Origin: Amoebophrya sp. A120
Taxonomy: Eukaryota > Protista > Dinoflagellata
DNA length: 64,000 nt
Reading direction: 5' to 3'
Assembly: GCA_905178155.1 (NCBI GenBank)
Contig: CAJINV010000015.1
Span: 1,237,495 to 1,301,494 of the forward strand
A program made the position numbers and the translations under genes. Positions 26,201 to 55,000 of this stretch are shown here, in pieces. Every line of letters starts with the position of its first letter. The stretch's first letter is position 1. Below the pieces are notes generated by a model that did not search any database, was not told the DNA's origin, and worked only from the letters and a program-made list of their open reading frames with translations.

Positions 26201-29200
26201 TTTCTCGTTTTGCGTGTACCTTGCACGACATGCGCGCAATCATACAGGTGACCAGTTGCATGGACGAAGGGACGCGACAACTACATGCAGTAGTAGCACA
26301 GATGCAGGACGAAACAACTCATTCTGAGTAGGTTGCCGTACCTGCTTCATTGAGCTTCCTCTGGATCTGTTCGACCCAGCCGGCCTGTAGGTCGGTGACT
26401 TCAGAAGCGTGCCGTGTATACATCGTGTATCCTAAGTAAAAACGTCTCCACCCCATACCCATAGTCAAGCTAGGAGCTCCGCATTACAAATGCAAATCCA
26501 GAGGGTTTGGCAGTCACGCAAAACAAATTTTCGTCTGTAGGACACTGCAGCCTAGCAGGGACAGCCGCATCACAAAGCCATTTGCATTTGGATTTGTTTT
26601 TATCCTATTGACAGCATTACAAATACCAAAACACGACTGGAAACTCCTCTTGGGAGGACGTGCGTTATAGATGCTCTACTTGTAGATGGTGCAAATCTCA
26701 GATGACAACTCGGGGGTGAGGGCATTTTTAATCAGGATATCGCAACATGCGTCTCCCCCGCCCTGGCGGAAGGGTCTTGCACACTCGTCGGGCCGTTTTG
26801 CTTCTCGGGAACTTGTTTTATCAAATCCCCCCGTCTTTGCACGTTGGCTGACAATTCCGCTAGTTTCGTGGAGTCAGCGAGCCTCGTGAACAGGTTTGCT
26901 GCAGCGCCCTCTTCGCCGAGCCTGTCGCCGGCACTGAGGGCAGCGATCTGCGTTGGAAGTTGCTGTTCAAGCGTCCGTTCAAAGGCATTCCTCGTTTCGA
27001 TGTACTGCCTTTCCAGATTGTTCATGTCTGCCTCCCAACGTTCGCCTGATTAGCATTTATTGTTTCATCTTGCTGGATGAAAATAGTATATCTGGCACGC
27101 GGCGACTCAGCACAGCGGCGAGAATTCGTCCGGGTGCTTTACATCTTCTACTTCAAAACGCTTCTATTAATACTCAGTGATACTTTCCGTTTCTTTCCCG
27201 TGATTATTCTCTATCAAACGCAAATGTGTCTGGGTCTGCAAACTTGTGATGCGGGTCGGACAATCATGACGAGGACAAGCATGATAAGTTTTTGAGTTGT
27301 AGTTGTACGTGTTGCATAATCTGCATTGCAAACTGCGTCCTTTCTGCGCGGTACATGAATGGGGCTTTGGGGTAACGTTTATGACAGATTTGACTGTCAT
27401 GCTAGCGAAGCATGACAAACGTTGCGCTCCCCTTCCAGAAGACCCAGACATATTTGCGATTGATAATTCTACTCGCAAAATCGAATTTACAAGAATCCGC
27501 CCTCTCAATAGCAGAACAAAAAAAAAAATTGTGTTGCCAAAGTCGCGCCACCAAACACTCTGTCATGCAGAGACCACTATGGCGACGCCTCCTTCCCATG
27601 CAGAATGGCATTTGTATTGCCCGAATTTTACGAAGAAATAAACAAGGGCGCAGCAAAAATCCCTAAACCCTAATTGCATGAGACAAATAGTTTTCTGCAG
27701 CCGGGCCCCCCTCTCCGCACCATGGGGGCAGGAGCGCCAGCAGCAGCGTACAACATTTCTCGTATGGAAAAATCTTCTATCTAGATCTTGATAGGGCATG
27801 GGCTGGAATAGTATCAAAATGGCCTTCAGCATCGTCGATACAGGAAAAGACTGATAAACGTAAGTAGAACTGAAGTAATTACCTGCTTCTCGTCTTGTCC
27901 TTTCTTCCTCTGTCTGTCGTCTTTTTTGTTCTTCCACCGCCCTCCGGGCCTCCTCGTCCTCTACTCGCTTCTGTTGTTCTTGGCGTTCTGTTTTTCAATG
28001 TAGTTTTTCCACTCCTTTAGCTCGGCCGCACCATGACTACAGGAGCGCCAGCAGCAGCATACAACATTTCTCGTATGGAAAAATCTTCTATCTAGATCTT
28101 GATAGGGCACGGGCTGAAATAGTATCAAAATTGCCTTCAGCATCGTCGACACAGCTCAACAAGACTGATAAACGTATTAAGCCAGACTGATGTAAGTACC
28201 TGCTTGAAGTCTTCTCCTTTCCTTCTCGTCGGCCTCTTCTCTTTGTTTTTCTTCCAACGCCTTCCGCCGGGCCGCCTCCTGCTCCTCCCGCTGCTTTCGC
28301 TCTTCCTCTTCGCGTTCTGTTTTATTTCAATGTACTTAGTTTCTTGTACCGTGCTTTAGCTCGGCTCTGCTGATCGAAGAAGACCAACGATGCGCGTTCG
28401 AGGAGCATGCACACGAAAATCGGCGTAAAAAAAATCTTGTATCCAGACCTTGAGGTAGTTGAAAGCACGGGCTGGCAAAAGAATATGAAAAAGGCCTTCA
28501 TCAGTGTGGTCGATACAACAGCCACGATGAACTACGTCCTTCCAGCGTTGTAAACAAAAACATCAAGTGTAGTTGTAGACATGCGTGCTTACCTCGTCGC
28601 AACCGGTCCTTCTCCGCTTGTTCAGCTTCTTGACCAAGTCGCTGTTGCTCTGTAAATGTAAAATAAATCAGGTCCTCTAGAACAAAAAACTACAAGGTGT
28701 TAGTTTATTGTTATGCGGCTTTTCGTTTTCTGTACACAACTACAACACGCTCCTCGTCTGAAATGAAACGAATCGTTGTTGCAAATGTCGAGTTGAATAT
28801 TCCAATCCTTATCTTTCCTGTAAGAACCCGACAGGCCTCTTTTTTCACGTGCGGGTAATTTCATGTGGTCGACCCAGGGTCTAGTACTGGTTGTAAAGCT
28901 AAAGCCCCAACAGAAGCAGGTAAAAAACAGTACTTTATGTACCAAGACGCAAGCCCTCCACCTTTGTACGTACATTCTCGGAGAGCGCTGCCAAACGGCC
29001 ACTATCTTCCTCATGCTTGCCGAAGAAGTTTTCTGCGGTGTAGGCCCTGCTCTCAATTGCCTGTGCTTGATCCTCACCAAAGAGTCTTTTACGCTCGTCC
29101 TATCCCGAGAAAAAACGTCCCCACGCCAGCCTTCTTGTCATGCATAAGTACTTTTGCGTGTCTTCACTGTTTCTCCTGCACAGCCCGCCCATGAGGGGCG

Positions 29201-32200
29201 TTTTCTCATACTGTCCTGGGCATTGTGCTGCTGCAATCTATCAAGATAACGAGCTGGATTTTTTATGCCATGACCTCACTAGCCAACCTCGTCGAGGAGA
29301 CCCAGATTTGTCATGCCCGACAGGACCCAAGCCTTGTTCTTGATTTGCGTAGCAATTGATTTTTTTCGTTTTTGTGAAAGCGGTGGGGGTGTTTAATTAA
29401 GTTTCTACTCAGGATACGTCCAAATTTCCCTGCAGGCCGGTCAGATCGCCTGAGAATTTCCTAAACAGCTCGTCGATGAGCCCCTGCGAAATTTCATCTC
29501 GTCGCTCCGTAGCGATATCACCGGCCAGCGCGTCGTGGCCTTTAGTAAATTCTTCCTCAAGCTCCTTCATGCGCAGGCGCTTGCGCTTTTTCAGTTCTCT
29601 AACCTCGCCAGCCTTTGCCATTGCGGCCTGCAGGGCGTCTTCCTTTGCCTTGAGCTCCTGGGCGTGCTTTTGCTCCTGCTCCCTCAAGAGCCTTTGCGCC
29701 TCCTCAATTTGTCGATTGGCTTCCTCTATCAAATGCAAATGTGTCTGGGTCTGGAAGGATGCAACTTGTGATGGGAAATCTTTCTTCTCGAGCAGCAAAA
29801 AATGTGTATTGTATGAGGGCCAATAAACGCTGCCCACTTTTTGCTACACAAATGGCGCATTTCTCATGCAGGATAGCTAATGCTTCATGTGCATTCCAGA
29901 TCATGTACTCACTTCAAAAAATGCATGGCCAACAAGCGCACTCTTCCAGACCGAGACATATTTGCCTTTGATATTGTCGAGCTCTGCCTCCAAATTGCCC
30001 TCGGCCTCCTTGTGCGTCGTTTTCAACTCCTCAAGCTCGGCATCACGGTCTTTCTTCAATCTTTCAGCCTTATCTCTTGCCGTCTCGCTTTCTCGCAGCC
30101 GTTTCTGATTCGCAGCTAGCAGCTCCTGGATTTCAGTGGCTTGTCTGTCGTATCAACTCCAAATATTTCAGAGTCTGGAAACCTGTGATGCTAAATGGTC
30201 ATATTAATTGAACAGCCTTCCTAGTGCAGCCACGCATGACAAACATTTTTGCGAGCGCTTTAGCTTTTTCATCATGCCTAGGGCGCATTACAAACTGCGT
30301 TTTTACATGACCCAAAAAGTCGCGCTGTTGTTGGTCATGCAACACATATCTTTCAGGAATGACAAGCAATACAACAAGTCCACTTTTCCGGACCCAGATA
30401 TATTTGCACTGGATAAGGCGCTCGCAATTTGCAGTTTATTCTCTGCGTCTTCTACTGCTTTTTCCAGTTCACGCAGCCGGTCTGCTTGTCTTTCTGTCTC
30501 TTTACGCCTTTCTCCTTCTTCCTCCTCTTCGCGCTCTTGTCTCCACCTGTTCTTCTTAGCCACTGCTTCTCTTGCCTGCGCATCAAGCTCCTCCAGCCTT
30601 CTCTTTACTGTCGCAGAGAGCTCTTGCCAACGGGCGGCATCCTCTTCATACTGCGCTGCGCCATCGGGCGGGGCCTCTTCGTCCGCATGATCGTTTCTAA
30701 GCAAGAGGCTCTTCCGCACTTCCAAATTAGACTGCAGGTCGGCCAGCGAAGCCTGGAATTCCGTACTCCGCCGTGCAACGTCGATCTGGTCCAAAACAGT
30801 ACTTCCTTCTTGCTCTGCGGTGGTACGGGCGAGCAGCGCCTCGTAGTCTGCATCAAACTTGTCCTTGAGCGCCTGCATGCGCTCGCCGAGCGCCTGCATG
30901 CGCTCGCGTCTGCGAGTATCCGCTTCATCGAGCTTGCCAGCGTTTCGTATCCCAGAAAAAAAAGCAGGCAGGGCAAAATTGTGTATGCAAAAATTAAATA
31001 GCAGAAAAATTTGTCATGGGTGACGCCATAGCCTGCTGTTTAGGGCATTTGTTTTGTCTATTTATGTTTGCAATACAAATATGACCTGCCTGTCTTTTTC
31101 TGGGGGATATTTCTCAACGCTTCCTGAAGAGATGCTTCGAGCGTCCCCACCTTCTGTTGGTTTGCCTGCTCGGTGTTTGCTGCGTCTGCTTTTGCCTCCG
31201 CAAGTTGTCTCTTGGTTTCCTCGAGTTCTTGCCCCAACTTCTCTTGCTTGCTCTGCAGATCCGCAAGCTCGGCCGCATGGTTATTCTTCGCATTTTCAGC
31301 GTCCCCTTTCGCCGCGTCGTTTTCGCTCTTCCACGCCTTCCGCTCCTCCTCCAGCGCCTTGTTGATTTCAGCTAAGCTTTTGCCTTCGTCAGCGCGCTTT
31401 TTTTGTACCCCGTCTAGTGCGTCCGTCAGTTTCGCCACCTCAGTCTCCTTTCCGGTCATTTCTTCCCTGTGCTGTTGTGCCTGTTGCTCATTTTCCAACC
31501 GTAAATTTGCAAGAGCAGCCTCGTGGCCTTCCTGCAACGCTTCATTGTCACGTTTAGCATTCTTTATCGCTTGCTGCGCGTCCTTCTATCCTGTTCAAAA
31601 AACGAACCCATCCCGTGCTCCCGTGTTTCATGCAACTCTGCATGAACCCCACATTTTGATGCTGTTCGGTATCGGTACTTAATTTGTCACGCTAGTGCAA
31701 AAATCTTGATATTAAAAGCGTCGATGTCGAATTACAATTACTTCTATGATCTTGACGCGCCCCCGGACAGTTCAGTTCTTTTTACTCTTAGATGGCCACC
31801 TCGCTATACCTACTTATATGACCATGACGACTGCAATATTTATACATTCGTTCTCGTCGTCAGTGTTCTTCGGCCACAAGCTTCATCTTGCTCAAGATGC
31901 TAGGCCCTTCAACATGAACGTAGAAAAGTGTTTACATTGCAAAGCCTCGAAACGCTTGCCAACTTGCATGTATCAGCATGACCAGTTTTCAATGCTCAAC
32001 GGTACGGATTTGCGCTGCAAAAGAGCCCAGCGACAGCCGGCCCCGTGAAGGATGCCCAGCGCGCCTAGCGTGTGCACCAGAGAGCAGACTCGTACTCCTA
32101 CTTTCATGCCACGCAAATACAAATTCCATTGGGAGACTTTGCGTATGAAAAATTTCCAACTTCCGGGGGTCGGGCACTCGTCCTCGCACTACAACTTCCC

Positions 32201-35200
32201 AGTGTAATTATAAGATCAGCTTCTTGCTCACACCGACTGAGCACGAAATTATACACGAATAAATCTATCTCTTTCTGGAGTAATATGGAGCCAGGCGGGT
32301 TCTATTTCTTGCACGGGATATTTGCAACTTTTCCTTTAATGTAGTTACTTGTTCTCGCAGTGTCTCGGCGAGCTCTCTTGCCACTCGCGCCTTTTCTAGC
32401 GCTTCCTGGCTGGCCTTCCTGTGCCTCTCCGCTTCCTTGAGAAGCTGCTCTTGACGGTGTTGGCTCTCCGCCGCATCCCGCTCCGCCTTTTCCTTCGCGT
32501 CCTGCGCTATTCGAACGCTGTCCTGTGCGGCTTTCTGCACGTCGTCGTGGCCCGCTGAGGCGACCGACAACCGTGCGTCGAGACTATCACGCGCAGCTAC
32601 CGCCGCTGCTAGCTCGCGCTCCTTCTCAGCAAGTTCATGATCCTTGTCGGCCAGAGCCTGTGCTGCCTTTGCCCTCTCCTCTTCCACCCTGGCGTCGGCC
32701 CTCGAATGAGCCTCGGCGAGACTCTCGTCGGACTGCCGCGCCCCGTGCCGAAACTGTTCCAGATCCGCCTCGGCCGCACGTAATTTCCGCTTCGCCAGCA
32801 CGCAGTCGCCGCCGCCCGATGATCCCTGCAGCCACTCTTCCACTTCGGCCCGGCAAGCGGCTTCGAGGGCCGGTTCTATCAAAATGAAAAATCCCCCCTC
32901 CCCATATCAAAACGGAAATTTGTGATGCTGATTTGTGGCCACAAATCAGCTTTGTATTGCAGAGAGGGACTGCGACCAGATCCCCAGGCTAGGTAGGGGC
33001 GTATGGGTCTAGCAAAACAGCATGGCAAACGGCCCCCCTTTAGGCCCAACAGCATGGCAAATCGCTTCCATAATGGGGCGGAAGCTCCTGCCCTTGTCTT
33101 CTTGCAAGACAGATGTGATTTGTGACCTCAAATCCGCAATGCAAATTTTTGGAGACATACCTTTTCAATATGGGGAGGGGGGATTTTTCTTCTCAATAGG
33201 TTCCGTGGTCACTTCGCTCGGGCTGTGGAACTCAGAAATGGCCGCATCGGTTATCATAGTGAAAAAAGCCCCCACCCCATATCGGAAACGGAAGATGCGC
33301 GAATTTGTGATGCTGTATTTGAGTACACAAATCGACTTGTATTGCTAGAATTCCAAGAGACGAAGCTGCGGCATACATTGCAGGTAATCTGTCATGCTGT
33401 TTCCCACTTCCAGCTGCCTCCTGTCATCCTGGAGCTGCAAGGCTCTCCCACGCTAGGCAGCACTACAGTTCGCATCTTTTGCCTTCTAGCATCACAAAGC
33501 TGATTTGTAACCACAAATCTGCATCACAGATTTCCGTTTTGATATGGAGAGGGGGCATTTTTCATTGTAATATCGGTCAAGGGCTTCCAGAGATCTCTTT
33601 CGAAGTCGGATCTACTTGCCCCCAACGTGCTGCTGGCGCTGTCAGCGTCGTACAGGCGCCGCGCTGCAGTCTTCGCTAGCGTGACCAGCGCAAACACCTT
33701 CGGGTAGGGTTGTTCCAGAGACGAGGGGGCGATTCCCGGTCCCGCGGCCTGGCTTCCCCCCGGGATGGGGTACTGCGAAGCCCCCAGCTTCAGATCAAGC
33801 GCGTCTTGGAAGTTTGGCGCGTCCACTGCACCGGACGAGGGTGTTCCGAGCACCTCGGCAAAGGGTTTCCGCCTCGGCGCCTGCGAGGCCTGTAGTAGCG
33901 GCGGCGTGCTACTTGCCCGCGCCACCAGCTCTTCTCCTAAGTAAAAACGTCCCCACCCTATAGTCCTGCTACACAAATCACCCACGTTCGGCTGTTGCGC
34001 ATGACAGGTTTGGCCTCGTAGCGTAATCCTGTTTAGCTAGTAGTTAAGCAGCATTACAGATGTAGAATAGCATGCTGATTGGAGCATCACAAATCCCGAA
34101 CACGATTAGAAAATGCTTCTCATAGGGCTCCGCATGAGCAACATTTTAAGCATGCACATTTGCATGACAACTAACTATGGGGTGGGGACGTTTTTCTTCA
34201 GGATAGCTCTGCCGCGGTGTTCAACTCCTGCATGACCCCTGGGCCCGCCCCCGCAGTTCTATGAAATGCAAAAGTGTCTGGGTCTCGAAGAGTCATGCTG
34301 TTTTTGCATGATACAGGAGGTCTGGCATGGAAGCTCTAGCATCACAGGTTTCGAGAAGCTTCCGCAATGCCGAATCCGCATGACAAGTCCCCCATTTTGG
34401 TGACAGAAAGTGGGAAGCTTTTGCTACCTATGCATGAGAGATTTTTGTGTGTTCTGAAATGCGCATCACAAGTTTGTATTCTTCCAGACCCAGACATATT
34501 TGCAATCCATAAGTTCCGGAGGAGACCAAATTGGACGCAGCCTGCCACTTCCACCATTCCTGCCCCGCGCGGTCGGGTGCGGGGGGCTTCAGCATGCCGA
34601 GGAACCGAAAAATCTTTTTCGTGTCTTCGTCCAGCAAAAACGAGTAAAGCTTCGGAAAATGCTGAAACCACCCTCCGTCAAGCAGTTCTGAGAGTTTTCG
34701 CTCGTACGGCGTCAGGTGACTCTGGAACCGTTGCATTGCTATTAACGCCACGCGCCTGCGGTCCGCCGTGTTTATGTCCTTGCCTTTCGTGCCACTGAAC
34801 GGAGGGGCCTTGCCCTGGGCTATCAAAGTGAAGAAAGGAGTGCCTCCACCCCGTACAAACGAAGAAAACTTGTGTAGTACTACTATGCTGGATTTATTCT
34901 TGCGCAGCCAACTTGTATTGCAGCAAGCGCTTGGCGGCATTTATTTCGAAGCCTGATAGTGTATGCAAAAGGCCGCTAGCAGTTAAGGCATAAAAGACAG
35001 CGGCTTCGCAGTAGGCAAAAGCGCGTCACAGATTGACTGTGGAATGCGCCAAACAGCTCCCACTACTTGCCCCATAGAATGCAACACAAATCTGATTTAC
35101 TGTGGTCACGAATCTTCACCAGCATCACGAAGTTCTTCCATTTTCTTGAGTACGGGGAGGGGAGCAGTATCAAATGTAAAAATGTCTGGGTCTGGAAGAA

Positions 35201-38200
35201 TTCATGTTTGTCATGCTTGTCTGGCATGACTCTTAAATCTGTCATGCACATTACCCAAGAGCTCCGTTTTTCTGTGATGCAGAAGCGCAGTTTGTCATGC
35301 AGAATAGGCAACACCTAGGACCTCAGAAACTTGTCATGCTGAGCCAGCATTTGTAGCCTCATCATGAGACGCCACCCAGCATCACAAGTTTCCAGACCCA
35401 GACATTTTTACATTTGATAAGCAGATTTTCGTCACGATACGGGCGGCGATCAGACCTGTGACGTAGGGCATCAGGTGTTGATATCCTGAGTAAAAACGTA
35501 CCCACACCATAGTCAAGATAGGGAATCGGCTAGACAAATCCACAAGCTTTGGCTGTTTTGCATGACAAATTCGGACGCGTATTGTAGTGCTGTTTGAGCT
35601 AGTTCAGCAGCATTACAGATCTAGTCTCTCATGCTGATTGGAGCTTGACAAATTTCAAAACACCATTAGAAAATGCTTCTCATGGGGCTCCGCATGAGAA
35701 ACATTTTAAGCTTGCAGATTTGCATGACAACTCTGGTGTGGGTACGTTTTTACTCAGGATAGTTGACGGGGCGCGGCCAGTGCACCTGGCCCCCCCTGTG
35801 CAGCTGCGCCCATGATCTGCACCTGGTTGTATTGAGCAACAGGCTGCAGCACCGAGAACCCCTTGAACGCCTGGCTCAAGGGGCTTCCGTGCACCGTGAT
35901 GGCAAAAGCCGCGTGTTGCAACGAAGCTTCTGCTTCTTTTCCGGGTACTACGGGAGAGAACTCCGCCTTCGCCGTGAGCGCCACTGCCTTCCCCACCAGG
36001 CTCACGTGACTCTTGCAGGCTGCAGACGCCGCCTCCGGGCGAGGCCATCGACCGACATCCCCGGAAGTCGTGGAGCTGCAGGTAAAGAACATGGCCCGCG
36101 CCAGCTCAGGCATCTCCGAGAGTTGCTTGTGAGTCACATCTGTGTTCGCTCCCACGACATCCTGTTGGGTCAGGCCAACCATCTCCTTCTGCGCCGCCAC
36201 CGCAGCGTGCTCGAGATACCGCTCCACCGTGTCCGAGAGCGCGCGCGTTTTCTGTGCCGGGGGGCCGTTGAGCAGATCCACCCCGAACCGGGCGGCCGAC
36301 TCCTCCAGGTTGCGCGCGAACTTCTCGAGCCAGGGCACGGCCAGGTTGTGACCGTGATGATATCCTGAGTAGAAATGTCCCCACACCAGAGTCAAGATGG
36401 GAAATCTGCTAGACAAATCTGTCAGCTTTTGCTGTTGCGCATGACAAGTTTGGCATCGTAGTGCAAGCATGCTTAGCTTGTTCAGCAGCATCACAGATCT
36501 AGCATATCATGCTGATTCTAGCATTACAAATCCCCAAACACGACTAGAAAGCCCTTCTCATGGGTCTCCGCATGAAAAACATTTTCAGCATGCAGATTTG
36601 CATTACAACTCTGGGGTGGGGATGTTTTTACAGATGATAGATGATTAATCTGGTTCAGCACGGGAAGCAGGTAGCTCGCCACAAACATCTGGTCCACGAA
36701 AATTCGGTCAACGAAGTGGTGAAACGCATCGTGCCCGTATCCTATGTAAAAACGTCCCCACACCATAGTCAAGTTGGGGAATCGGCTAGACAAATCCACA
36801 AGTTTTGGCTGTTTTGCATGACAAATTTGGATTCGTAGTGTAGTGCTGTTTGAGCTAGCTCAGCAGCATCACAGATCTAGCATACCATGCTGATTGGAGC
36901 ATGACAAATTTCAAAACACGATTGGAAAATGCTTCTCATGGGGCTCCGCATGAGAAACATTTTTAGCATGCAGATTTGCATTACAACTATGGGGTGGGTA
37001 CGTTTTTAAACAGGATAGCCCGCGGCTGCGGGTCATGAGCTGCAGCTCACTTGTCACGTAGTCCAGGTGGCCCACAAACTCTTGCGAGATCTTTTCCATC
37101 TCCACGTACAGCGCCGGAAGCTCGAACGGTTGCGGCCTCGGCGGAGTATTCCCGACGGACACGGTCGCGGTAGCGGTGGTTCCGACACCAATTCCCGAGG
37201 CGGGGGGACCAGCACCTGCTCCCAATCCGGAGTTAGATGAACCGACCCCCGCTTATGCATTGCAAATATGTCTGGGTCCTCTGGAAGAGTCCTCCAACTT
37301 GTGATGCTAAATCTCGACCAGATAAAAATCTGTATTGCATGGGTGCCAAGTCGTGCTGCCCACTTTTCGCTGCAAAAACGGCGAATTTCTTATGCGGGGT
37401 GAGCATTTTTAGATAGGAAGCTCCTTGTACTTGTTTCGCAAAACCTGTAATGCTTGGCGTGCAGCATTCCAGCAGATCCAGACCACTGATCTGTACAACG
37501 AGCAGAAGATGCATGTGACAAACAAGCGCACTCTTCCAGAGGACCTCCCAGACATATTTGCAATTGATACCGTTGCTGTTGTACTTCTCACGGGTCCTCG
37601 TGCTGTCCCTCCATCTCGTCCGTTCGAGGACCTCATGGCACTCTGCTCCAGTTCGCTCAAATACTGAAAGAACATGTTGCACTTTTCCTCCAGATTGTTT
37701 CCTTGGTGTTCTACATCGTCAGCCAGCCGCTCCATGGCCTCCTGTGCCGCGCCCCCCATCGCGCCGGCGTCTCGGAAGACTTGCTGCACGTGCGCGGCGT
37801 CTGGAATTACATATGACCCGCTCCTCGCTGGCTCAACATGTTGGTTGCACCAGTCTGCGAATCCGCCGTTTTGGAAGCTTGCTCGTGCCCTTTGCAGAAG
37901 TTCTCCGTAGTTCATACTAAGCCCCGCCTGCGGGTCAACGTTTGCCTTTGCTGGAAGCACTCCGGGGTAAAGCGTCTTCTTTATATTCGAGTCGATGTTG
38001 GCCAAGATCGTTCTCGCAACGTCGGGCCAGTCCTGGTCGGAATCCAGTCTCTGCCCAGTTTTCTGGCAGTACCTCTCGAGATCCTCTCGGGCCTGTGCTG
38101 GGAGGAAACGCAGCGCGAGGCTCCGCGACTCGGCTTCCCGCGTCTGCTCCTCCGTAGGATCGGCACTGTTGTAGAGAGTTTCCAAAAGGTTCTCGCAGGC

Positions 38201-39454
38201 CGGTGCCGGGCCTTGGTCCGCCGCCAGGACGTCGTCGGCAAGGCTGTATTCTTCCAACCAGCGGTCGAATGATTCCAAGACCGGCAAGGTCGTGGTGGGG
38301 CTTGCAGCGTCCTCTCGGAAGGGATTTCCAGACTCGCTGCACCTGCGATATTCGTCCTCAGGCCGGTCTCCGGCGAAGTTCAACTGCCCACACCAAAACT
38401 GCAACAGTGTGTGGGAGAAGTCTTTGAACATTTGCCTCGGAAGGTGCTGGTGATCATGGTCCTCGACACAGGTTTGCTTCACGAAGTCCTCTCCCGCGTT
38501 CGGGTAATCTCTCGAGAGCGCACTGAAGACGCGCACCACCCTCTTGACTAAACCTGACTCGGAAATGCCCTCGTCGGCGTCCGCCCACCGGTCCAGGAGA
38601 GGCGAGCAATTGTCAGCGAACATGGTGTCGACTGGCGACAAGCCTCCCTCGTCGTCCTTCTGAGACACAACTACAGGGTCGAAATACGTTTCCATCCACT
38701 CGCCCAAGCTCGCCGCTGACGGCAACACTGGATTATGCGCCGGAAGATTTTTACCGAAGGGGTTCTCGCGGGTGCAGCGGTCACGATGATCTCCCTGGAA
38801 AACGTCGCTGCACCACGAATTCAAAACGAGTTTGGCGAACTCCACGAACACCAAGTACCATTTGCTTTCTTCTATGACCCGCGCCGTACAGACGCCATCA
38901 AGTGACCGCCAAAAAGCATCATAGTCCTCCTGCGTGGTTCGTTCTCGAAAGACCTGATTTGCGACTTGGAGCACATTGTTCACCAGGTCCGCGGGATCGT
39001 CTGTTGCTCCCGGTACGTGACTTAGCATGATTTCGCACGCGGGAGGAAGCCAGTTTTGTTCCACTTCTCCCTCGTGCCAGCCATAATCGTCCTGGGGCGC
39101 ATCATAGTCGTAGTCGGAGGGATGAAACTCCGCTGCACTAATAAACGCCCCGCCCTGGTGGTGAGCCTGGTCGTGTACTTCTTCTGCCCAAAATTCATCT
39201 TCCGGGGGAATCGCTCCTTCCGCGCCAGCAAACTCTTCCGGGAAATAAAGTTGTGCTCGGTGCTGCCTCTTGTTCCCCCGCGTCCCGGACACAAAAGGCG
39301 TCGCGCTTTGAAGAAAATTATACTCCTGCAGAAGAGAAACCGCTCCTTGCAGAATGAACCCGGACGACAAGAAGTCGCGCTTCTTGCACCACCTCAAACG
39401 CCACGGGACCATTTGGGAGGTGTTCCGTGGGCGCAGTAGAGGTTTTGCGACCAT
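6817..39454 (-). CDS. Very large multi-exon gene: Cys-repeat N-terminus, coiled coil, array of helical-repeat exons, Pro/Gly-rich C-terminal region
   Basis: The frame can be traced from ATG 39454 through introner-bounded exons to ~28940. It then continues via phase-1 GT-AG exons whose lengths are all multiples of 3. Linkage below 27 kb and the exact 3' end are inferred. Confidence 0.6.
9607..9942 (-). CDS. Helical-repeat exon, phase 1-1, 112 aa
   Basis: CAG|AA ... ACAG|GTGAGG, 336 nt, open. Confidence 0.7.
11440..12540. mobile_element. Degenerate family-A introner interrupted by a 762-bp insertion
   Basis: Left end tatcaaatgcaaatacgtctgg, right end cagaccc...tttgcatgtgata; ~284 bp once the insertion and one 55-bp repeat are removed. 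Confidence 0.5.
11506..12267. mobile_element. Foldback-like insertion flanked by a perfect 55-bp direct repeat
   Basis: Repeat at 11451-11505 and 12268-12322; GAGAGGGTCC-like array (~11800-11970) faces a CCCTCTC array (~11985-12240); hairpin at 11579-11599. Confidence 0.7.
13305..14522 (-). CDS. Helical-repeat exon, phase 1-1, 111 aa, split by three introners
   Basis: Removing 14174-14447, 13787-14114 and 13448-13715 (each +5 nt) leaves 333 nt open: GQMRELGGEYATRQQQLE...FVIPLDNAVGRGEGVL...LAANRQG. Confidence 0.7.
13448..13715. mobile_element. Introner family A
   Basis: TIRs; DR tcttc/tctgc; frame restored. Confidence 0.85.
13787..14114. mobile_element. Introner family C, degenerate
   Basis: tataaaaatgaaaaaaagccccc...ttttcctcacagta; 328 bp; frame restored. 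Confidence 0.6.
14174..14447. mobile_element. Introner family B
   Basis: TIRs; DR tctac/tctgc; frame restored. Confidence 0.8.
16131..16478 (-). CDS. Helical-repeat exon, phase 1-1, 116 aa
   Basis: TCAG|AG ... ACAG|GTAAGG, 348 nt; motif LGNLGDNVRTRE. Confidence 0.72.
17176..17458. mobile_element. Family-A element inside a canonical intron
   Basis: Degenerate TIRs; DR gtagg/gtact; empty paralogous site at 22670-22674. Confidence 0.65.
18130..18444 (-). CDS. Helical-repeat exon, phase 1-1, 105 aa
   Basis: TTCAG|AA ... GCCG|GTAAGA, 315 nt; motifs NWQRRNSLL and HHSTELQTLGTAW. Confidence 0.75.
20660..21019 (-). CDS. Helical-repeat exon, phase 1-1, 120 aa
   Basis: CTCAG|GC ... GACG|GTAAAG, 360 nt; motifs LEHNVRERENLL and THGAMLLRH. 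Confidence 0.75.
23152..23544 (-). CDS. Helical-repeat exon, phase 1-1, 131 aa
   Basis: TACAG|CC ... GCCG|GTATTA, 393 nt; motifs LQGNVNFRHTLL and THDALYRFH. Confidence 0.72.
23899..24281. mobile_element. Family-A element inside a canonical intron
   Basis: gtctgggtctgg and ccagacccag termini; DR ttggc/ttggt. Confidence 0.6.
24447..25228 (-). CDS. Helical-repeat exon, phase 1-1, 150 aa, one introner
   Basis: Removing 24512-24838 (+5) gives THDEMYQRHSAEVDRLETAWLGQVRKKLDE. Confidence 0.75.
24512..24838. mobile_element. Introner family B
   Basis: tatcctcagtaaaaacgtcccca...tggggacgtttttgctcaggata; DR cgttg/cgctg. Confidence 0.85.
25919..25975 (-). CDS. Charged linker micro-exon, phase 1-1, 19 aa
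   Basis: TGTAG|CC ... AAAG|GTAATT; ARAEEERRLKEAEEQNNQK. Confidence 0.6.
26342..27045 (-). CDS. Helical-repeat exon, phase 1-1, 129 aa, one introner
   Basis: Removing 26428-26739 (+5) gives THVAMYTRHASEVTDLQAGWVEQIQRKLNEA. Confidence 0.75.
26428..26739. mobile_element. Introner family B
   Basis: TIRs; DR tcgtg/tcgca; frame restored. Confidence 0.8.
27212..27465. mobile_element. Family-A element, probably within an intron
   Basis: TIRs; attct on both flanks, offset by 1 nt. Confidence 0.7.
27720..28649 (-). repeat. Tandem duplication (~310-bp unit, 2 close copies plus 1 diverged) of an intron and an E/R/K-rich micro-exon
   Basis: 27720-27860 is nearly identical to 28030-28175; exons 27883-27987, 28200-28316 and 28593-28649 are all phase 1-1 and 3n long. 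Confidence 0.8.
29101..29416. mobile_element. Introner family B
   Basis: DR cgtcc; gives LQGNLD-ERKRL. Confidence 0.85.
29727..29973. mobile_element. Introner family A
   Basis: TIRs; degraded DR tcctc/ttgtc; frame restored. Confidence 0.8.
30151..30415. mobile_element. Introner family A, degenerate
   Basis: TIRs; DR tgtcg/aggcg; frame restored. Confidence 0.75.
30948..31109. mobile_element. Introner, minor family I
   Basis: tatcccagaaaaaaaagcaggcagg...cctgcctgtctttttctgggggata; DR tttcg/tttct. Confidence 0.8.
31587..32320. mobile_element. Oversized (734 bp) introner-like intron
   Basis: tatcctgttcaaaaaacgaaccc...gggttctatttcttgcacgggata; no clean DR, but removal +5 keeps the coiled-coil frame. 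Confidence 0.5.
32877..33198. mobile_element. Introner family C
   Basis: tatcaaaatgaaaaatcccccctccccata TIR; DR ggttc; 322 bp. Confidence 0.9.
33252..33572. mobile_element. Introner family C, opposite orientation to its neighbour
   Basis: DR tcggt; 321 bp. Confidence 0.9.
33933..34205. mobile_element. Introner family B with a TCT left terminus
   Basis: DR gctct; frame restored. Confidence 0.85.
34260..34511. mobile_element. Introner family A
   Basis: DR agttc. Confidence 0.9.
34821..35439. mobile_element. Degenerate family-C introner hosting a nested family-A element
   Basis: DR tgggc/cgggc; removing the whole unit gives GLIAA(R/Q)GKAPPF. Confidence 0.8.
35168..35419. mobile_element. Family-A element nested in the TIR of the family-C introner
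   Basis: Perfect long TIR; DR agcag; 252 bp; close inverted copy of 53331-53582. Confidence 0.9.
35482..35761. mobile_element. Introner family B
   Basis: DR gttga; 280 bp. Confidence 0.92.
36361..36639. mobile_element. Introner family B
   Basis: DR gatga; 279 bp. Confidence 0.92.
36738..37017. mobile_element. Introner family B
   Basis: DR gcccg; 280 bp. Confidence 0.92.
37254..37569. mobile_element. Introner family A
   Basis: DR ccgct/ccgtt. Confidence 0.85.
37570..39454 (-). CDS. First large exon of gene 2 (acidic, two Cys/Trp repeats)
   Basis: 686-aa ORF 37409-39469; its last ~53 codons run into introner 37254-37569. Confidence 0.85.
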
Positions 39455-42400
39455 TTGGTTTTTCAACAAAAATCTGTCATATCTGGTGGGAATAAAAAAT
39501 TTTCTCGGGGAAAACGTATTTTTCAGGATTTCTTCAAAATGTTTTAGTTCTGCGCCAGACTCCAGATACGCACAGAAATCAAGAACATCGGTTCAACATC
39601 TACTGACTTCTGTGCGCGGGGGAACCTCCGTGTTGTAAACTAAAGTACTAGTAGTGTCAGCTGCTACCACTTTTTTCCGAGGGGACGGACGGCGGGAGAG
39701 ATAGGTAAGCCTCCACTGCTAAGCAACTACCGCTTATTCATTTTGTAACAGAAAGTCCTAAATTTTCAAGCAAAAAAGTTGCAAACAAATTTTGTATGCT
39801 CCAGAATTCTTAGGGGGGTGAAAAATGTTTCGACGTTTTGTTTCTGATGATACAAAAACTGGTCGGTGGGATGAAAAAGCTAATTTTTATTGGGATTTCA
39901 AAGAAAAATCTTGTTTTCTTGAGAAGAAGACGGTGGACGAGCACGTGCAATTAGAAAGAACGACGACTTGTACGAAAGTGGCGGATGTACCTCTGAAACA
40001 GGACGATTGTACCGATTGAAAGCTTCCAAAAAGAATGATGAAAATGAGGACGACAACAGACTAGAAGAATCTTTTCCATGAAAATAACGACTCAACCGAC
40101 TGAAACCAAGTACTGCCCGGGCTGCTTGTGTAAAACGACACTTGTTTTGTGTCAAACGAACGAGAGAAACCACATCACTGTTTTGTGTAAAACGCGGAAC
40201 CGACGAGAGAAACCACATCACTGACCGACAACACAATCAGAGATACTATAACCCGATGTAAGTAAAAGCGGAAGAAAAAGTCACACCGTCTCCCAACAAT
40301 TCGGCAAACGAACGAACAGCACACTGTATACGGAAAGACGCTCTGTCAAAACAGGCACACTCTCCTGCGCCACGGTAGTTGGTGAACTCGTCCAACTACA
40401 TCAACTACAGCTGCGGGGGATGAATTTTGATGTTCACATACTTTTACTATAGATTAAACAGAGTTCATTTACTGAGAAACGAGCGAATATCAAAGTTGAG
40501 CACTGTCATCTAGAAGTTGCAGCACGAGCTGCAAGAGCTCGCTCATGCGACAGTTTGAGCGGCAGGAGTAGTCCTGCGGTAGAAGTTCTTTCGATCATTC
40601 TTTCTGTCTGTTCTAGAGTCTTTCTCGACTTCTTTTTGTACTTAGTGGAAATAAAACAGGAATAGCACGGCGAATAATTATCAACGGGACTAGAAATAAA
40701 TTTAGAAGGACGCTGCTACCACTCGTATTGCTTCTGTAATTATTAGGTCACAACAGTTGTAAAGAGGAAGCTACTTGTTCTGCTGGTGGTGCTGGGTGGC
40801 GGAGGTCGTGGTGGTGGTGCACCCCTTTTTTAGGAGTTCTCGTTCACCTCCTCTCCTTTGACATCTGGTGCTGTTGATGTCAGGTCGACGTTCGAGAGGC
40901 TGTTGTAAAAAGAACCAGGACTTCTCGACAAAACCTGCCAGTCCGTCCTGATCTAATTCCATTGCAAGAATTCTTCTATGGAGGTGGTGTACTGTTGAAG
41001 CAAGGTGGAGGTTGTTTACAACTGGTTTTTTATTGAGGGATAGTAGAAAAGAGAGTCCTAGAAGTAGATAAGTTCTGTCAACCTGCGCGACGATGTCGCT
41101 CGTCTCTGGGTCTGCTTCGCTTTCGTCGAAGTCGAAACAAAACCCCGTACGCAGGTGAAGTGTGTGGCTTCGAGAAATAGATTTTGCTTTTTAACAAAGA
41201 GAGTCCTGCTAAAGACATGGGTGAACTTGAGTTCATCTCGTACTTAATACCAAATGAGGATTCGAAAGAAAGCTGATGACGTTTTTACATATTCATATCA
41301 AACCGACGCTGCACCTGCTGCGCTGTGGCCCGCCCCCGCCACTACACACACTGCATTTGCGCTGTTTCGTTGCATTATCGTCTTCTGCTGGTAAAATTGA
41401 ATTAAGTATTGACTTTATCTGACTGAAATTTCTTAGCTGTTGATGTTTCGAAGGTATTGATGATTGACTGTTTTTTTGATTTTTAGCGTGAAGTTTTTTT
41501 TTTTTTTTTTTTGCCAAGGGAGGACTGGATCAAGCATGGACAGTGGTCCACTTTCCTGACTACTAGAAAAAAATCTTACTCATTCGCAAAATGGTTCTGC
41601 TCAGGATCTCATTGTTGGTTGCGCCAGCAAGGGGGATAAAAATAAGGCTGGTACGCGGATACAGGTGCAAGGTGTCACAGTGTGCCAAGCAGATTCAGAC
41701 CAGAGGCGCAGCACCCCCCGCGCCCCGGCCGGGCCCCGCGCGCTCCCCTTCCTGGTCTGGCCTCACTGGATGAAGGGAACGCAGGGTCTGTCTTGTTCTG
41801 AATCTGCCTGCCAAGCACTTGACGTTCACACCCCCAACAACAAGCTCCCTTTCCTTAGACCGATTTCTCTACTATATAAAATGATCCTCCCGGGGTTGAT
41901 GCCCCAGCCGCACATATAAAACTGAAGCCATTTGCCTTGACGCGAGGCTGTTGCAATCAAGCAACTCATGACCAATAGCCCCTCATACAATGCGTCGCAG
42001 CGGTCTTCCCGGCTAGTGCAGAGCATACTCAATTCACCACCTTTTTTCCCGTCCACTAGCTGCTGCACCTTGTCCGGCCTATACTTATGGAAAAAAGCAG
42101 TAACTGTGCGCAGTTACTGCTTTTCATTTGATACTCTTATCTTTTTACCCTGGGTCTATTTTCCATGCAAGACAGGTTTGAAACAGATTGCGGCCTCCCC
42201 CCACCTGTATTGCATACCTATCAAAATACAAACTGAAGCACATTGATTCTGGCTTCTCATGCTTGACTAGCAGCAGAGTCGTTTTTCTTTGAAAACTGCA
42301 ACAAGTCGCCCACGATCCACCGACGCAATGGCCCAGAAAGCAATCTGTTTCTCCCCTGTGTATAATGTCCATCATGTAAAAACAAGATCAGCAACACACA

Positions 42401-43084: not shown

Positions 43085-46000
43085 CTACGCCACCACGGCA
43101 AATACGGAACTTCCAACCGCCGCCAGGAGCAACATCCACGGAATCTGTTTCGCGGCAAAGGCTGCGCTGGCCTCGGCGTCGTCCCCGTTGCCACTGGAAG
43201 CACCGCTGGCCGCGGGTGCGTCGCCCGCATTGGCGGCCTATGGGAGTGCACAACTCCCCCTCCCCCTCATTTGTATGGCATGAACAGCAATTTAAGTGTC
43301 GGCACGAATGCAGGTTTTGCATGGCAAATTCACCCAGGATTGTAGCGATGCATAGTAGTCACAGGAGGGAAAGTGTGGCAGTTGTGTTTTGCATGACAAA
43401 TGAGAACGAGGGAGACGAGTTGTGCATTGTCATACGGCCAACTGCCCGTGCACAAACCCCGGAACTGGAAAGGCTAACTTCACGCTGGAATCGAACGCAC
43501 TGATGCAGCCCCCGCTACCTTCGCACAAAGACACCGTCCACACCTGGGCAAGAATTTGAATTTCGATAATTTAACATTAATGTCGCGGTGCAGATAAAAT
43601 GCAGAGATCAATTTTCGCAAGTGCATACTTAGTTTCCACAACAACGTTATTGTGGAACACCACCCACAACACGGACAAACCGGATTCGGAAAAGTTATGA
43701 GCAGCACACGACAACACGCACAGCATCTGAAGACAAACTGAGACTGTCTCTAGTGGCAGTGCTAGAGGCCTGGCTGAATGCAATGAATGCAAATGGAAGA
43801 AAAAAAAAACGACTTTTCAATATATTTTTACGTTGTAGGGCGGTATCTGTGCTGGAACCACGGCCTGGAAAGAGAAGGAATAGGTTCCCTGTTGCTGCTA
43901 TCCCCTGCAAATATGTTGCCTAGGTCTGGATCATCAGACCACAGTGTAGATCTGAAATAAGTTGTACCATGCATCATGCTGTTTTCGCGTGACCAAGAAG
44001 GTCTCCGACATGTTGGACATGCAAGCCCTAGAAGTAGCATGACAGGCTTTATGGAGATGACTCTTCCATGCCTCAGCTAGTACCTTTTTCAGTGACAAAA
44101 AATCGGCATCAGCTTTTCTTCCTGTTCATGATGCATGCGAAATTCTTCTCTATGTGAACAGTACGCATCAACAAAAGTCTGCTGGGTTTGCTTCTTTATT
44201 CCAGACCCAGATCGAATATTATATATTTGCATGGCATAGCTGCAGCCCGGAGGGATCCACGTCTGGTCCCGTCATCAGCGAAATCCTGAGCCGGTCCTGC
44301 TGTGTGGAATCCAGCCATCTGGGCACATCGTCCTCATCCATGACCAAGGGCATACCGCCCGGCTGTCCGTTCAGTGCGGTTTTTACCTCGGAAAAGCTGA
44401 CGATGGTGTGGAAAAATCCCTCGGGAAAATTTATGCAATACAAATTTCCCGTACATAATGTACAAGAAGCATCACAAATTTCACCACGTAGGAGTCGTGT
44501 GCAGCCACTTTGTCAGGCTAAACCAGAATCGAAGCTCAGTTTTGTCATGCAGAGACCGCATGTGCACCTGTACGGAAAATTTTCTCCTGTGGATAAAATT
44601 GATCAACACCTCACCGAGGTCTCGCAGCGACCGGTCGCGGATATACATTGCAAAAAGATAGTCTGGGTCCTCAGGAGCGATGCAGCTTGTCATGCGGAGT
44701 CTCGACCACAGGCTTTTCCGTGTTGCATGCTTAGGCTCTTCTTGCTAAGCAAGAAGCCGAATTTCTCATGTGGTGCGTGAGATGTATGACAAATCTTGCA
44801 CTCTTCCAAAGGAACCAGACAAGTACTTTGCACTTGATAGCCAAAGGAGGTTGTTGATTCGTACACGGTGAACGCTACGGTCATGTCCGACTTCTTGTTG
44901 GCGTCTGCTCGGTTCCAGCTCAGGTCGGAGACTGAAAATGAATTTTTATTTTTGCGATCCTAGGCACGACGAAGTTGGACACCTCTCGTGACTTTTGTCC
45001 AGTGAGGAAAGAGCGACAAACTAACATTCTCATCATCGTCATCATCATCATGTTCTAAAAATCATTCAAACAAACGAAGACTTCTGTACAGCGAATGTCG
45101 ATCCCGCTAAGCATTTTCAGGCCTTCTCGGTCCATTGCGGCATCCCGCACTTCTTTCTGCAAGTCGTAGAGCAACACAGAGTATGGAATGCAAATATGTC
45201 TGGGTCTGGATGAATGCAGATGTTTGTCATGCGCAGTTTGCATAACCCCTGGCGTCTGTGATGCATGCCCTAGCATCGCAGATTTTTCAAGGGCTTCCTG
45301 ATGTTCATGCCGCATGAGAAATGCCCTCTCCGCGTAGCAAAAACTTGATCCCTCTACAAATTGCAGTTCATGCAATACGAATTCTGTGTAGAATCCAAAG
45401 GCAGCATCACAAGTTGGCATCCTTCCAGACCCAGACATATTTGCAATCCATAGAGAGAACCGGTTGTTCACGGGTGTGGTCTGCGGCACCATGGTTCGCA
45501 TCGAAAACGCGTACTGTGCAGCGGGTAAAGTAGACGACAGTTTCAACCGCACCTGGTTGTTGCCCCCCTGCTCACACTTCACGTCGCCGATGAGAGAGTA
45601 TGACAGTGCACAACTACTCCCCCTCGCCCTCATTTGTATAGCTGCAGGAACGGCAATACAAGCATCAGAAAGAATGCCGGTTTTGCATGACAAATTTGCA
45701 CTATATTGCGATTGTAGCGATATTAGGGCTACAACCAGAACTTGTCATGCAAACAGTGCCAAGAGGCAGAGCCAGGATTTGGTATTTTGCATGACAAATG
45801 AGGGGCAGAGGGAGTTGTGCACTCTCATAGAGAAATCGGCTTCAGATTTCCGTCCTCGCAGTTCACCTCGAACGCCTCGGGGACTAGCACCAGAATCGTT
45901 CCCCCGCCCTCGAGGGTGATGGAGGATTTGAAGCCTATGGTAATCTCGGACTCGACCCCCGGCATATCCTGTGCAAAAGTATCGTACTCGTACTAATTGC

Positions 46001-52000: not shown

Positions 52001-55000
52001 TAAACAGGATAAGCAGATGGATTTGTAATGCGGCTGCCCACGCTAATCTGCACTACAGTACGAACTGAAATCTGGCATGCGTGACCCCCAAAGCTTCTAG
52101 GTTTGTGTTGCAAAATCCCCATCCTGACTCTGGAGTGGCGGATTTCGCTTTGATATGCAGATCCCGTTGGTTTGCGAAAACTTGAAGTCTTGTGGGGCAA
52201 TCAACTTCAAAACACCCCCGGAATTCGGCGTGGGCAGATCGGGGGAGATGGTATTCCGGGGCTTCAAGTCGAATTTCACCGGAATATGCCGAATTTCGTT
52301 GGCGGGCGACCGGGCCGTGGACCTGAGGTGTTACTTTGTTTTCTTCACATCGCGTCTCGAACTTGTCATGCTACTTTAAGCATGAATGTGAACCAACAAT
52401 GTTCATGCAATTGTGCAAGAAAAAACAAAGGGCGAACAAACTGTCAATCTACACACCAGCATAACAAACATCCTCGTAGTAGTACCTCGTTTCCACGTTC
52501 GTCTCTGTGAACGTCCAGAGCACAAAACCCGGCATCAGCTCGTTTACCGAAGACTCGCCGTTGAATTCCAAAGCGTAGTTGTTCTCGGCTGGAGTGAACT
52601 CCGGGTTCGACTTTATCCCGATGCGGAACGCGTACAGCCGGGCCGCTTCCAGATACACCTTGTCCTTTGGCTGGACGGTAAACACCGCGGTGTTTTTGGA
52701 GCCCCGACAGTATGGATTGCAAATTTGTCTGGGTCTGGAAGAAAGGAACCTGTGTTGCGTGTCTTAGATTTTTCGTGTAAAATCTGTATTGCGTGACCAG
52801 GAAATAAAGGAGCCTTCTTTTGTCATGCAAAAGCGCAGCTTCTCATGCGCACTACGCATGAGAAAGTGTCCGAAACATTTGTCATGCTTGGTCGACCCTT
52901 TCAGGGGTATGCTCAATCATCGCCACCCAGCATCACAAGTTTCCAGACGCAGACAGTTTTGCAGGTCATAGACAGTAGGTGATCTCGATATCGGTCGACC
53001 ACACGGTGTAGTCCGCCGGCATGGGCTGGCCGCCGAACACCGTTGTGGGCCGGACCTCCAAGACTGACAAACAGTCCTCGTAGAACAAAAACCCCTCGGG
53101 GGCGCGAATGCTCATGTCGTAGGTAGAGACCACGGGGTTGGTCTGCGGCTTCGCGTCCTTATTGAGTTTGAAAGAGAAAATCAAACTGTTCGGTCGCAGA
53201 GGCCGGTCGTCGCGCCCGGTCGCGAGCCGCACCGGCTCGTCACTAGGTTGATCGAGAAGCAGCAGCCTCGCCTCCATCATTCTCTCATTCACCGGAAAAC
53301 TAGTGGCCGCGATCGGTCTATCTTGCGAAGTATCAAATGTAAAAATGTCTGGGTCTGGAAACTTGTGATGCTGAATGGCGTAGCATGAGGAGGCCACAAA
53401 TGCTGGCTCAGCATGACAAATTTCTGAGCTTTTAGGTGTTGCCTATTCTGCATGACAAACTGCGTTTCTGCATGACAGATAAATTTGTCTCTTGGGTAAT
53501 GTGCATGACAGATTTAAGAGTCATGCCAGACAAGCATGACAAACATGCATTCTTCCAGACCCAGACACTTTTACATTTGATACGAAGACGCGGCGGACGC
53601 GAGCGAGGTGGCAACCTGTAGGATCATGTGTGTTTTTTTATTGCGTGGCTTTGTCTTGTACAGTTTTCTGTGAAGCAGAGACAGCAACAGAAACTAGATT
53701 CGTCATGCACTTTGCAAAGCAAAACACCACAAAAATACCGTTGTGTCGGACGCCGTACTGAAATCCCAGCACATGGTATATCCGCAACTGCTCGACACGC
53801 TTGCCGCCTGCGAGACCGCCAGCGTTGGGTTCTTTGCGATGAGCACAAACCCATACGTCGCCGGCGGTAGCATATCCTGTGCAAAAGTTAAAGTACTCGT
53901 AGGAATCCCAATCATGCATTACAAATCTCCTTCTTAACCTCAATCCGCATTACAAATTTCATTTTTCATGCTGAGGGAATTTGTCATGCGATTTCTACTA
54001 GTGCGATGCTTTTGCATTTCATAGAGCACCCCCTGGGCCGAAGTGATCCGCAGTTCGGGTCGAGTCGCGGTTGTCAGCAATCTCGTCGGAACAGCTCCGT
54101 CGACCGAATCATCTTCTTCCAGCAGTTCTCTCGGCGGCGACCATACGGAGCACGTCGTCCCCGCCGGAAGGTCCACCGTCCCCTCCGGTAACGGCCGAAG
54201 GTTTTCCAGCCCGCAGTTCGCCTTTTCGTACAAATACCCCGTTGGAGAGATCAACACGAGCCCCCCGTTTTGCGGTAGTTGCGTGACCGTCCCGATCGTG
54301 AACGATAACCTGTTCTCCCGGTTCGCGACGTTGGTACTGTACCCCACCGACGCAGACGTCAACGCCCTAATTTTCGGGGCCGGAATGACCCCGCCAAACG
54401 GCCTGGTGGCGAGGGTGGTGCCATCGTAACCAAATTCGACCGTGAAATTTGCCATGGACCCGTGCGGTGCGTAATTCGGCACTTGTACCGGCACTTTGAA
54501 GCCGTAATGTTTGTTAGCGGTGGAGAAGTCGTAGGTCGTTGGGTTCGCGAAATTCAACACGTGTAACGGCCCCACGGTCGGCGCGTTGGTGTGCGGAAAG
54601 TCGGCGGACGCACTGGTGCTGTAAAGCGTTGCGGACGGCCCGGAATTCCGGTAGGCCCACTTAGTTCCCGGCTTCCACTCGTAGTATTGAATGCAAATAT
54701 GTCTGGGTCTGGAAGACTCATGCTGCTTCTGCATGACACAGAAGGTCTGGCATGGAAGTTCTAGCATCACAGATTTATCCGAGAAGCTTCCGCAATGCCG
54801 AATCCGCATGACAAATGCCGCTCGATTTTGGCGACAGAAAGTGGGCAGCTTTGGCTGCCTATGCATGAGAAATTTTTCCGTGTTGTGAAATGCGCATCCC
54901 AAGATTGCATTCTTCCAGATTCAGACACATTTGCAATGCATAGGTAGCCAAAGGGCGCGATAATCCGGAGTTTCACGTTGGTCAGAGTCATGGGCAAGTT

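Follow-up and report, generated by a model that had tools for sequence, protein, structure and literature searches.

Nested introners in a host gene

The 64,000-nucleotide (nt) stretch of Amoebophrya sp. A120 DNA analysed here, referred to as the window, is dense in short elements with TAT at the start, ATA at the end and a 5-nt direct repeat on either side; 46 simple elements of this form were recovered by a pair search of the window. Introners described in A120 are about 250 nt long, carry the end motif TAT, seven loose bases and at least three A, have direct repeats at their borders, form a hairpin and lack GT-AG (PMC7789003). Among 42 hand-picked window elements belonging to several families, TAT at positions 1-3 is common to all and AAA at positions 11-13 to most. 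Introners split one host gene transcribed from the minus strand, and in one of them a young family-A introner lies inside the end repeat of an older, family-C-like introner. We confirmed this nest, and its components are collected in Table 1 in window numbering.

Table 1. Components of the nested introner and of its host gene.
Feature	Position	Strand	Remarks
Outer, older TAT...ATA introner, family-C-like	34821..35439	-	362 nt without the inner element and one duplication
Inner, young family-A introner	35168..35419	-	252 nt; end repeats identical over 30 nt
Right copy of inner target duplication AGCAG	35420..35424	+	native bases 16-20 of the outer end repeat
Left copy of inner target duplication AGCAG	35163..35167	+	
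Intact outermost 20 nt of the outer element	35420..35439	-	transcript 5' end; contains the whole TAT-N7-AAA motif
C-rich inner portion of the outer 5' end repeat	35135..35162	-	predicted to pair with 34843-34860, inner element present or not
Outer 3' end repeat, degenerate	34821..34860	-	AAG, not AAA, at positions 11-13
Upstream copy of outer target duplication	35440..35444	-	GCCCG in transcript; last base absent from mRNA
Downstream copy of outer target duplication	34816..34820	-	GCCCA in transcript; last base retained in mRNA
Segment lost from mRNA under the inferred -1/+4 register	34817..35440	-	624 nt; GT start, CC end
Exon piece separating the nest and the next element	35441..35476	-	36 nt
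Host gene part	29030..39592	-	1942 stop-free codons once all 14 TAT introners are removed

The inner element and the copy at 53331-53582 agree in 232 of 252 positions (92%), and 97% copies of the inner element occur in a related assembly, of which a pattern scan gave at least 134 loci (L001-L134, 557 kb). The AGCAG duplication flanks it on both sides, as the sequence-only reading of this DNA had described. That reading placed the insertion 15-20 nt from the outer end; because the target site was duplicated, 20 native end bases are intact (15 plus the 5-nt duplication), not about 15. When the inner element and one duplication copy are taken out, the rebuilt 362-nt outer element aligns best with family C, with global scores of 162-182 against four family-C copies in the better orientation (shuffles 46-57, standard deviation 8-12), 73-78 against family B and 39-63 against family A. 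The proposed rebuilding of a family-C terminus is thereby borne out, with the outer element as a diverged member that exceeds the 321-322-nt copies by about 40 nt. Its flanks, TGGGC and CGGGC, match at four of five bases. The published end motif (TAT, seven loose bases, at least three A) fits both inner ends and the outer 5' end. AAA stands at positions 11-13 in 729 of 812 element ends from the window and the related-assembly loci, these ends having been preselected by the presence of TAT and by agreement with a matrix derived from the 42 window elements. A contig of run X1, whose kind is not on record and which behaves as DNA, covers 34486-35191 without mismatch and backs the outer body and the left inner junction; the right inner junction is in no independent piece among those listed. 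No orthologue of the nest locus, and so no empty site, was present among the at least 134 related-assembly loci.

Transcript joints and the position of the cuts

Transcript contigs came from three runs of one sample (X3, X4 and X5), the RNA nature of which is guessed and not on record. A joint from 34816 to 35441, skipping 624 nt, occurs in contigs of X4 and X5 (depth 58.4 and 58.9), and the same joint follows in X3 from piece coordinates via 36 letters between the pieces. Among the 15 of 16 joints listed, 14 lie on transcript contigs and one is a repeat artefact of X7. All 14 skip exactly the element plus 5 nt, and the joined contigs of 8.2-9.0 kb lack all 14 elements at once. Across the nest the mRNA reads GLIAAQGKAPPF; since base 34816 is retained in the transcript, the residue at the junction, left as R or Q by the sequence-only reading, is Q. 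In a frame test over 31700-39500 with eight other elements taken out, removal of the outer element gives 1415 stop-free codons, as against 980 with removal of the inner element only or of neither. Counted from the start of the upstream exon, inner-only removal and both cross pairings of ends run into a stop in no more than 46 codons. Frame and joint thus agree that only removal of the outer element restores coding, as had been claimed. Other cDNA junctions, or flanks that do not belong to family C, had been named as the findings that would speak against the nest; the joint and the family-C alignment both agree with it.

Three family-A relatives of the inner element are spliced in the same transcript. 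So are a 734-nt TAT element with an old unequal duplication at 31587-32320, which indicates that long interiors are tolerated, and an element at 33933-34205 whose terminal TAT is now TCT on the plus strand (transcript 3' end) and whose intron would end in AG under the register given below. The remaining runs contributed little at the host gene: X7 and X8 yielded scraps, X9 matched element copies only, and the raw-read run X15 gave 99 reads, all in repeats, with the host gene uncovered. Depth over the outer body is 0 in X3, X4, X5, X7, X8, X9 and X15, and contig sequences drop rare RNA forms. Pfam families were found in none of 12 window frames and in none of the three host-gene exon frames tried, and the longest host exon frame had no homologue among longer proteins.

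The placement of a joint can be expressed as the number of upstream duplication bases that fall inside the intron (n5). Equal duplications hide the cut, whereas unequal copies reveal its position. The copies are unequal at six of the 14 listed joints, where the allowed n5 values are 0-1, 1-2, exactly 1, 1-5, 0-3 and 0-4. The joint of 31587-32320 alone fixes n5 at 1 and two others bracket it (0-1 and 1-2), and n5=1 is the sole value common to all 14 joints (29030-37729). We infer from the six unequal joints a -1/+4 register: with n5=1 as the only shared value, each intron would take in 1 nt ahead of TAT and 4 nt beyond ATA. No GT-AG placement is possible at any of the 14 joints, and the outer nest joint taken by itself allows five placements, none of them GT-AG. 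Under the -1/+4 register the introns start with CT (5), AT (4), GT (3) or TT (2) and their ends vary. A requirement for GT at the intron start was considered and ruled out, GT being found in 3 of 14 only. An RNA polymerase II gene failed as an independent test of the register, as its sole candidate with unequal duplications did not join coding sequence.

Folding, foreign inserts and the order of removal

In the predicted fold of the full nest, the inner element forms a closed side branch and the outer stem pairs on both sides of it. Predicted probabilities of the outer terminal pairs are 0.59-0.83 with the inner element and 0.65-0.91 without it; each end pairs with its own partner (inner 0.85-1.0, outer 0.59-0.83), cross pairs being at 0.0. 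Once only the 5' part of the transcript has been made, closure of the inner stem is already predicted at 0.95-1.0. End-to-end pairing beyond the family consensus was seen at few positions only, confounded by subfamilies. A rule that tied the first 5' end to whichever 3' end came next would ruin the host gene, so that partners must be chosen by pairing or by a closest-pair-first rule. Own-end pairing, early closure of the inner stem and the stops on wrong outcomes together favour removal of the inner element first, as the usual and not the obligatory order; on this modelling, inner-first removal is likely and probably not obligatory.

The sequence-only reading had left two options, ordered two-step splicing or sufficiency of the outermost 15 nt or so. 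This choice is incomplete, because the predicted outer stem around an inner side branch provides a third, and one-step removal of such a structure would not prove that about 15 nt suffice. Nor is the nest the clean natural test of the minimal signal that had been proposed: the shared motif is intact, and the inner element, a perfect substrate itself, offers an escape route, so that the nest cannot bound this signal. The first interpretation is therefore partly supported, its anatomy, family assignment and removal of the whole outer element holding and its inference being too narrow.

Non-introner inserts in other elements are cleaner in this respect. Of 12 long elements inspected in the related assembly, eight contain foreign inserts that lack TAT ends and lie between 24 and about 150 nt from the closer end; L019 proved a wrong call and L003, L015:6480 and L046 were ambiguous, and all four were dropped. 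These elements were judged by frame or homology. Removal of the element plus 5 nt gives the longest frame in three of the eight (L015, L026 and L038) and a tie in L043; it does not in L130, L027, L042 and L004, nor in the window element at 11440. Despite the frame test L042 is rescued by homology: its 972-nt element (L042:5001-5972), with a foreign insert that has an A-rich tail and a short direct duplication, interrupts the motif GEMVGTIAAQSVGEP of the RNA polymerase II largest subunit, and removal of the element plus 5 nt restores the motif. The best named matches of this related-assembly polymerase are from dinoflagellates and apicomplexans (61-64%), and another match reaches 87%. The family-A element L038:2532-2913 carries a 122-nt insert that ends in ATG repeats 24 nt from the 3' end; its frame extends over 989 codons with the element plus 5 nt removed, as against 778 and 737. 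If RNA confirms its removal, L038 would be the best natural bound on the minimal end signal.

We consider the following reading rather probable: a young hairpin-type transposon intron went into the end repeat of an older one at a distance of 20 bases from its edge, the whole 624-base nest is lost from the mRNA, the cuts are likely set by distance from the paired ends, and the inner element is likely, though probably not of necessity, removed first. Of this, the nest, its 5-base duplications, the mRNA joint and the lack of any GT-AG placement are shown. Each 5' end would pair only with its own 3' end, the outer stem forming around the inner side branch. Transcription would finish the inner hairpin about 340 bases ahead of the outer 3' end, so that the inner element would usually be cut first, and this cut, in the -1/+4 register, would rebuild the native outer end exactly. 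Each cut would be placed 1 base before TAT and 4 after ATA, by distance from the paired ends. A stronger form of this idea is possible, and we put it forward tentatively: a ruler from the paired ends (-1 from TAT, +4 from ATA) would ignore the bases at the cut, partners would be found by hairpin pairing and some 20-24 terminal bases would be enough, so that the nest would be a true inside-out twintron of a route needing neither GT, AG nor U1.

Several observations weigh against this reading. Independent random cuts share some register 8% of the time (3720/46656) and share n5=1 specifically in 0.9%; the former is the fair chance figure because n5=1 was not predicted beforehand. The support for the register is moderate, coming from contig sequences of one gene in one sample. 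Four of the 13 spliced simple elements have a TAT:ATA pairing probability under 0.3, L038 has one near 0.1, and the element at 33933-34205 is spliced without its terminal ATA. At -7.5 kcal/mol over 20 nt, the duplex of the outer ends ranks among the weakest 5% of 406 elements; together with the four elements that lack predicted terminal pairing, this means that pairing alone may not be the whole signal. One-step and two-step removal would yield identical mRNA. No unspliced RNA of the locus was present (outer body depth 0 outside X1), so the data are silent on order and the absence of an inner-removed intermediate carries no power.

An obligatory two-step twintron, in which the outer element becomes recognisable only once the inner one has been cut out and the end repeat rebuilt, like the donor-interrupted stwintrons of fungi, seems unlikely to us. 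It would suit the position of the strongest part of the outer stem, the C-rich tract, internal to the insertion point, and the energy of the 40-nt end duplex, -30.3 kcal/mol when rebuilt as compared with -15.7 for the linear ends of the nest. The exact restoration of the outer end by -1/+4 removal of the inner element and the rarity of TAT-in-TAT nests (1 in 406 elements) speak for it as well. However, folding predicts an outer stem that encloses the inner branch, the shared motif at positions 1-13 is uninterrupted, and in L038, where a non-introner insert lies 24 nt from the end, removal of the element plus 5 nt still yields the longest frame. Slightly less probable again is the converse, in which removal proceeds in one step only: short end motifs beside true exon sequence would be read and the inner element would leave as passive interior. 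An element at 92-97% identity to free-standing copies, with three family-A relatives spliced in the host transcript, is hard to regard as passive, and nothing was found that would hide it from the machinery. A common exon-side signal is not evident either, as the duplication bases are near random and the intron ends vary. What this explanation accommodates well are the foreign inserts of about 120-1000 nt in eight related-assembly elements and one window element, the concentration of cross-family conservation at positions 1-3, 9 and 11-15, and the listed joints, which are free of an inner-removed intermediate, though without power on this point.

Excision at the DNA level, as for the internal eliminated sequences of ciliates, or an assembly error of the nest is very improbable. 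The runs with the joint are only guessed to be RNA, and the right inner junction is spanned by no listed independent piece. Against this, the X1 pieces contain the elements without mismatch (34486-35191), the 8.2-9.0 kb contigs without all 14 elements are mRNA-like, AGCAG stands at both inner ends, the rebuilt end aligns with family C, and Farhat et al. treat such elements as introns supported by RNA sequencing (PMC7789003).

Relation to known systems, rarity and further features

The nest shows the end motif, the 3-5-nt direct repeats, the non-canonical RNA borders and the genomic repetition of the A120 introners (PMC7789003), and it is best described as an RNA-supported variant of these known elements. 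Tens of thousands of non-GT-AG introns are reported in Amoebophrya, with U1 undetected (PMC7789003). The splice position in A120 is called 'variable' relative to the hairpin, with the border position unknown (Farhat et al. 2021, PMC7789003), and the legend of Fig. S23 places the repeats 1-5 nt from the splice sites. Unlike these undefined borders, one register fits the 14 listed joints here, and one element is nested. The word 'nested' is absent from the main and supplement texts of PMC7789003, and from the searched texts of PMC12130899, PMC9860276 and PMC11282704; neither an Amoebophrya nest nor a defined cut position appears in the titles and abstract openings surveyed (figures S19-S25 of PMC7789003 and Roy et al. 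2023 lying outside this scope).

Introners within introners have precedents. Those of Micromonas are reportedly of spliceosomal type, with ordinary splice signals. Several cases of one introner inserted in another are reported for Micromonas (Verhelst et al. 2013, PMC3879977), from which the A120 nest differs in its non-canonical borders and its insertion in an end repeat. Inside-out stwintrons are known in fungi, where each of the two components is a canonical U2 intron and target duplications are absent (Fekete et al. 2021, PMC8469720). By comparison, the nest elements are non-canonical, have 5-nt duplications and keep the shared end motif uninterrupted, and the outer joint has no GT-AG placement as a canonical U2 intron would. 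Set against a strict twintron, motif 1-13 is intact; the insertion splits the family-specific portion of the end repeat, which is predicted to pair all the same. The closest working model is provided by the nonconventional introns of Euglena, which are non-GT-AG and are cut at set distances from motifs that pair, 3 nt before CAG and 5 nt after CTG, with pairing needed and with borders defined from non-slidable introns (PMC12501133; reviewed in PMC11282704). By comparison, the nest introns are in another lineage with other motifs and spacers of 1 and 4 nt, and are not members: their ends are N-TAT and ATA-NNNN, not the euglenid-type CAG at +4 and CTG at -8.

The register would be a clue to how Amoebophrya, in which U1 is undetected, removes its non-GT-AG introns. 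If true, the -1/+4 register would define the real intron borders, correct gene models and guide a search for lariats or circles. The nest alone is a curiosity with precedents and less decisive than had been claimed; the cut register is the better result, and it and the foreign-insert elements are the leads worth following.

TAT-in-TAT nests number one among 406 unique elements (320 with enough flank), with a detector that picked up 160 nests out of 195 simulated. If insertion were blind, a rough model would predict 18-38 nests, 2.7-5.5 of them in the window alone, where the shortfall does not settle the matter (P 0.03-0.26); nests may also be concealed where short-read assemblies break at repeats. 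As foreign inserts do persist, nests may be scarce through avoidance of such targets or because competing ends are a risk. Adjacent elements in the window and L001-L134 are 30-99 nt apart in 103 of 298 gaps and less than 30 nt apart in nine, which suggests targeting beside, not into, existing elements and recalls the linker targeting described in PMC9860276. With 60% G+C, the insertion site of the nest is among the richest 10% of the outer element and resembles ordinary targets (mean 57%, n=316). Its position near the outer end is thus no evidence of selection and need not reflect splicing.

The other elements with foreign inserts are L015:5314-5770, L026:571-1051, L027:3862-4492, L043:8961-9456, L130:301-699 and L004:8473-9727. 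L130, L027 and L004 appear to share one insert family, and several foreign inserts are located at an internal CATG-containing motif. In the window, a TAT element at 11440-12540 (284 nt when collapsed) holds a 762-nt foreign insert with mirrored GAGAGGGTC repeats that is 82% like L036:9107-9861, and it contains a perfect 55-nt direct duplication (11451-11505 and 12268-12322).

Of 812 element ends, 513 have the motif TGT[ACG]ATGC no more than 110 nt away, usually at 30-49 nt and across families; it may possibly be a binding site for a mobilising protein; the rebuilt outer element has no exact copy of it near either end. Three elements (43239-43434, 45599-45829 and 60680-60993) start with TAT and have 5-nt duplications and no AAA at positions 11-13, which may make them exceptions to the published motif. 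A local duplication is marked by two identical stretches, each at least 40 nt long, at 27758 and 28069 (311 nt apart).

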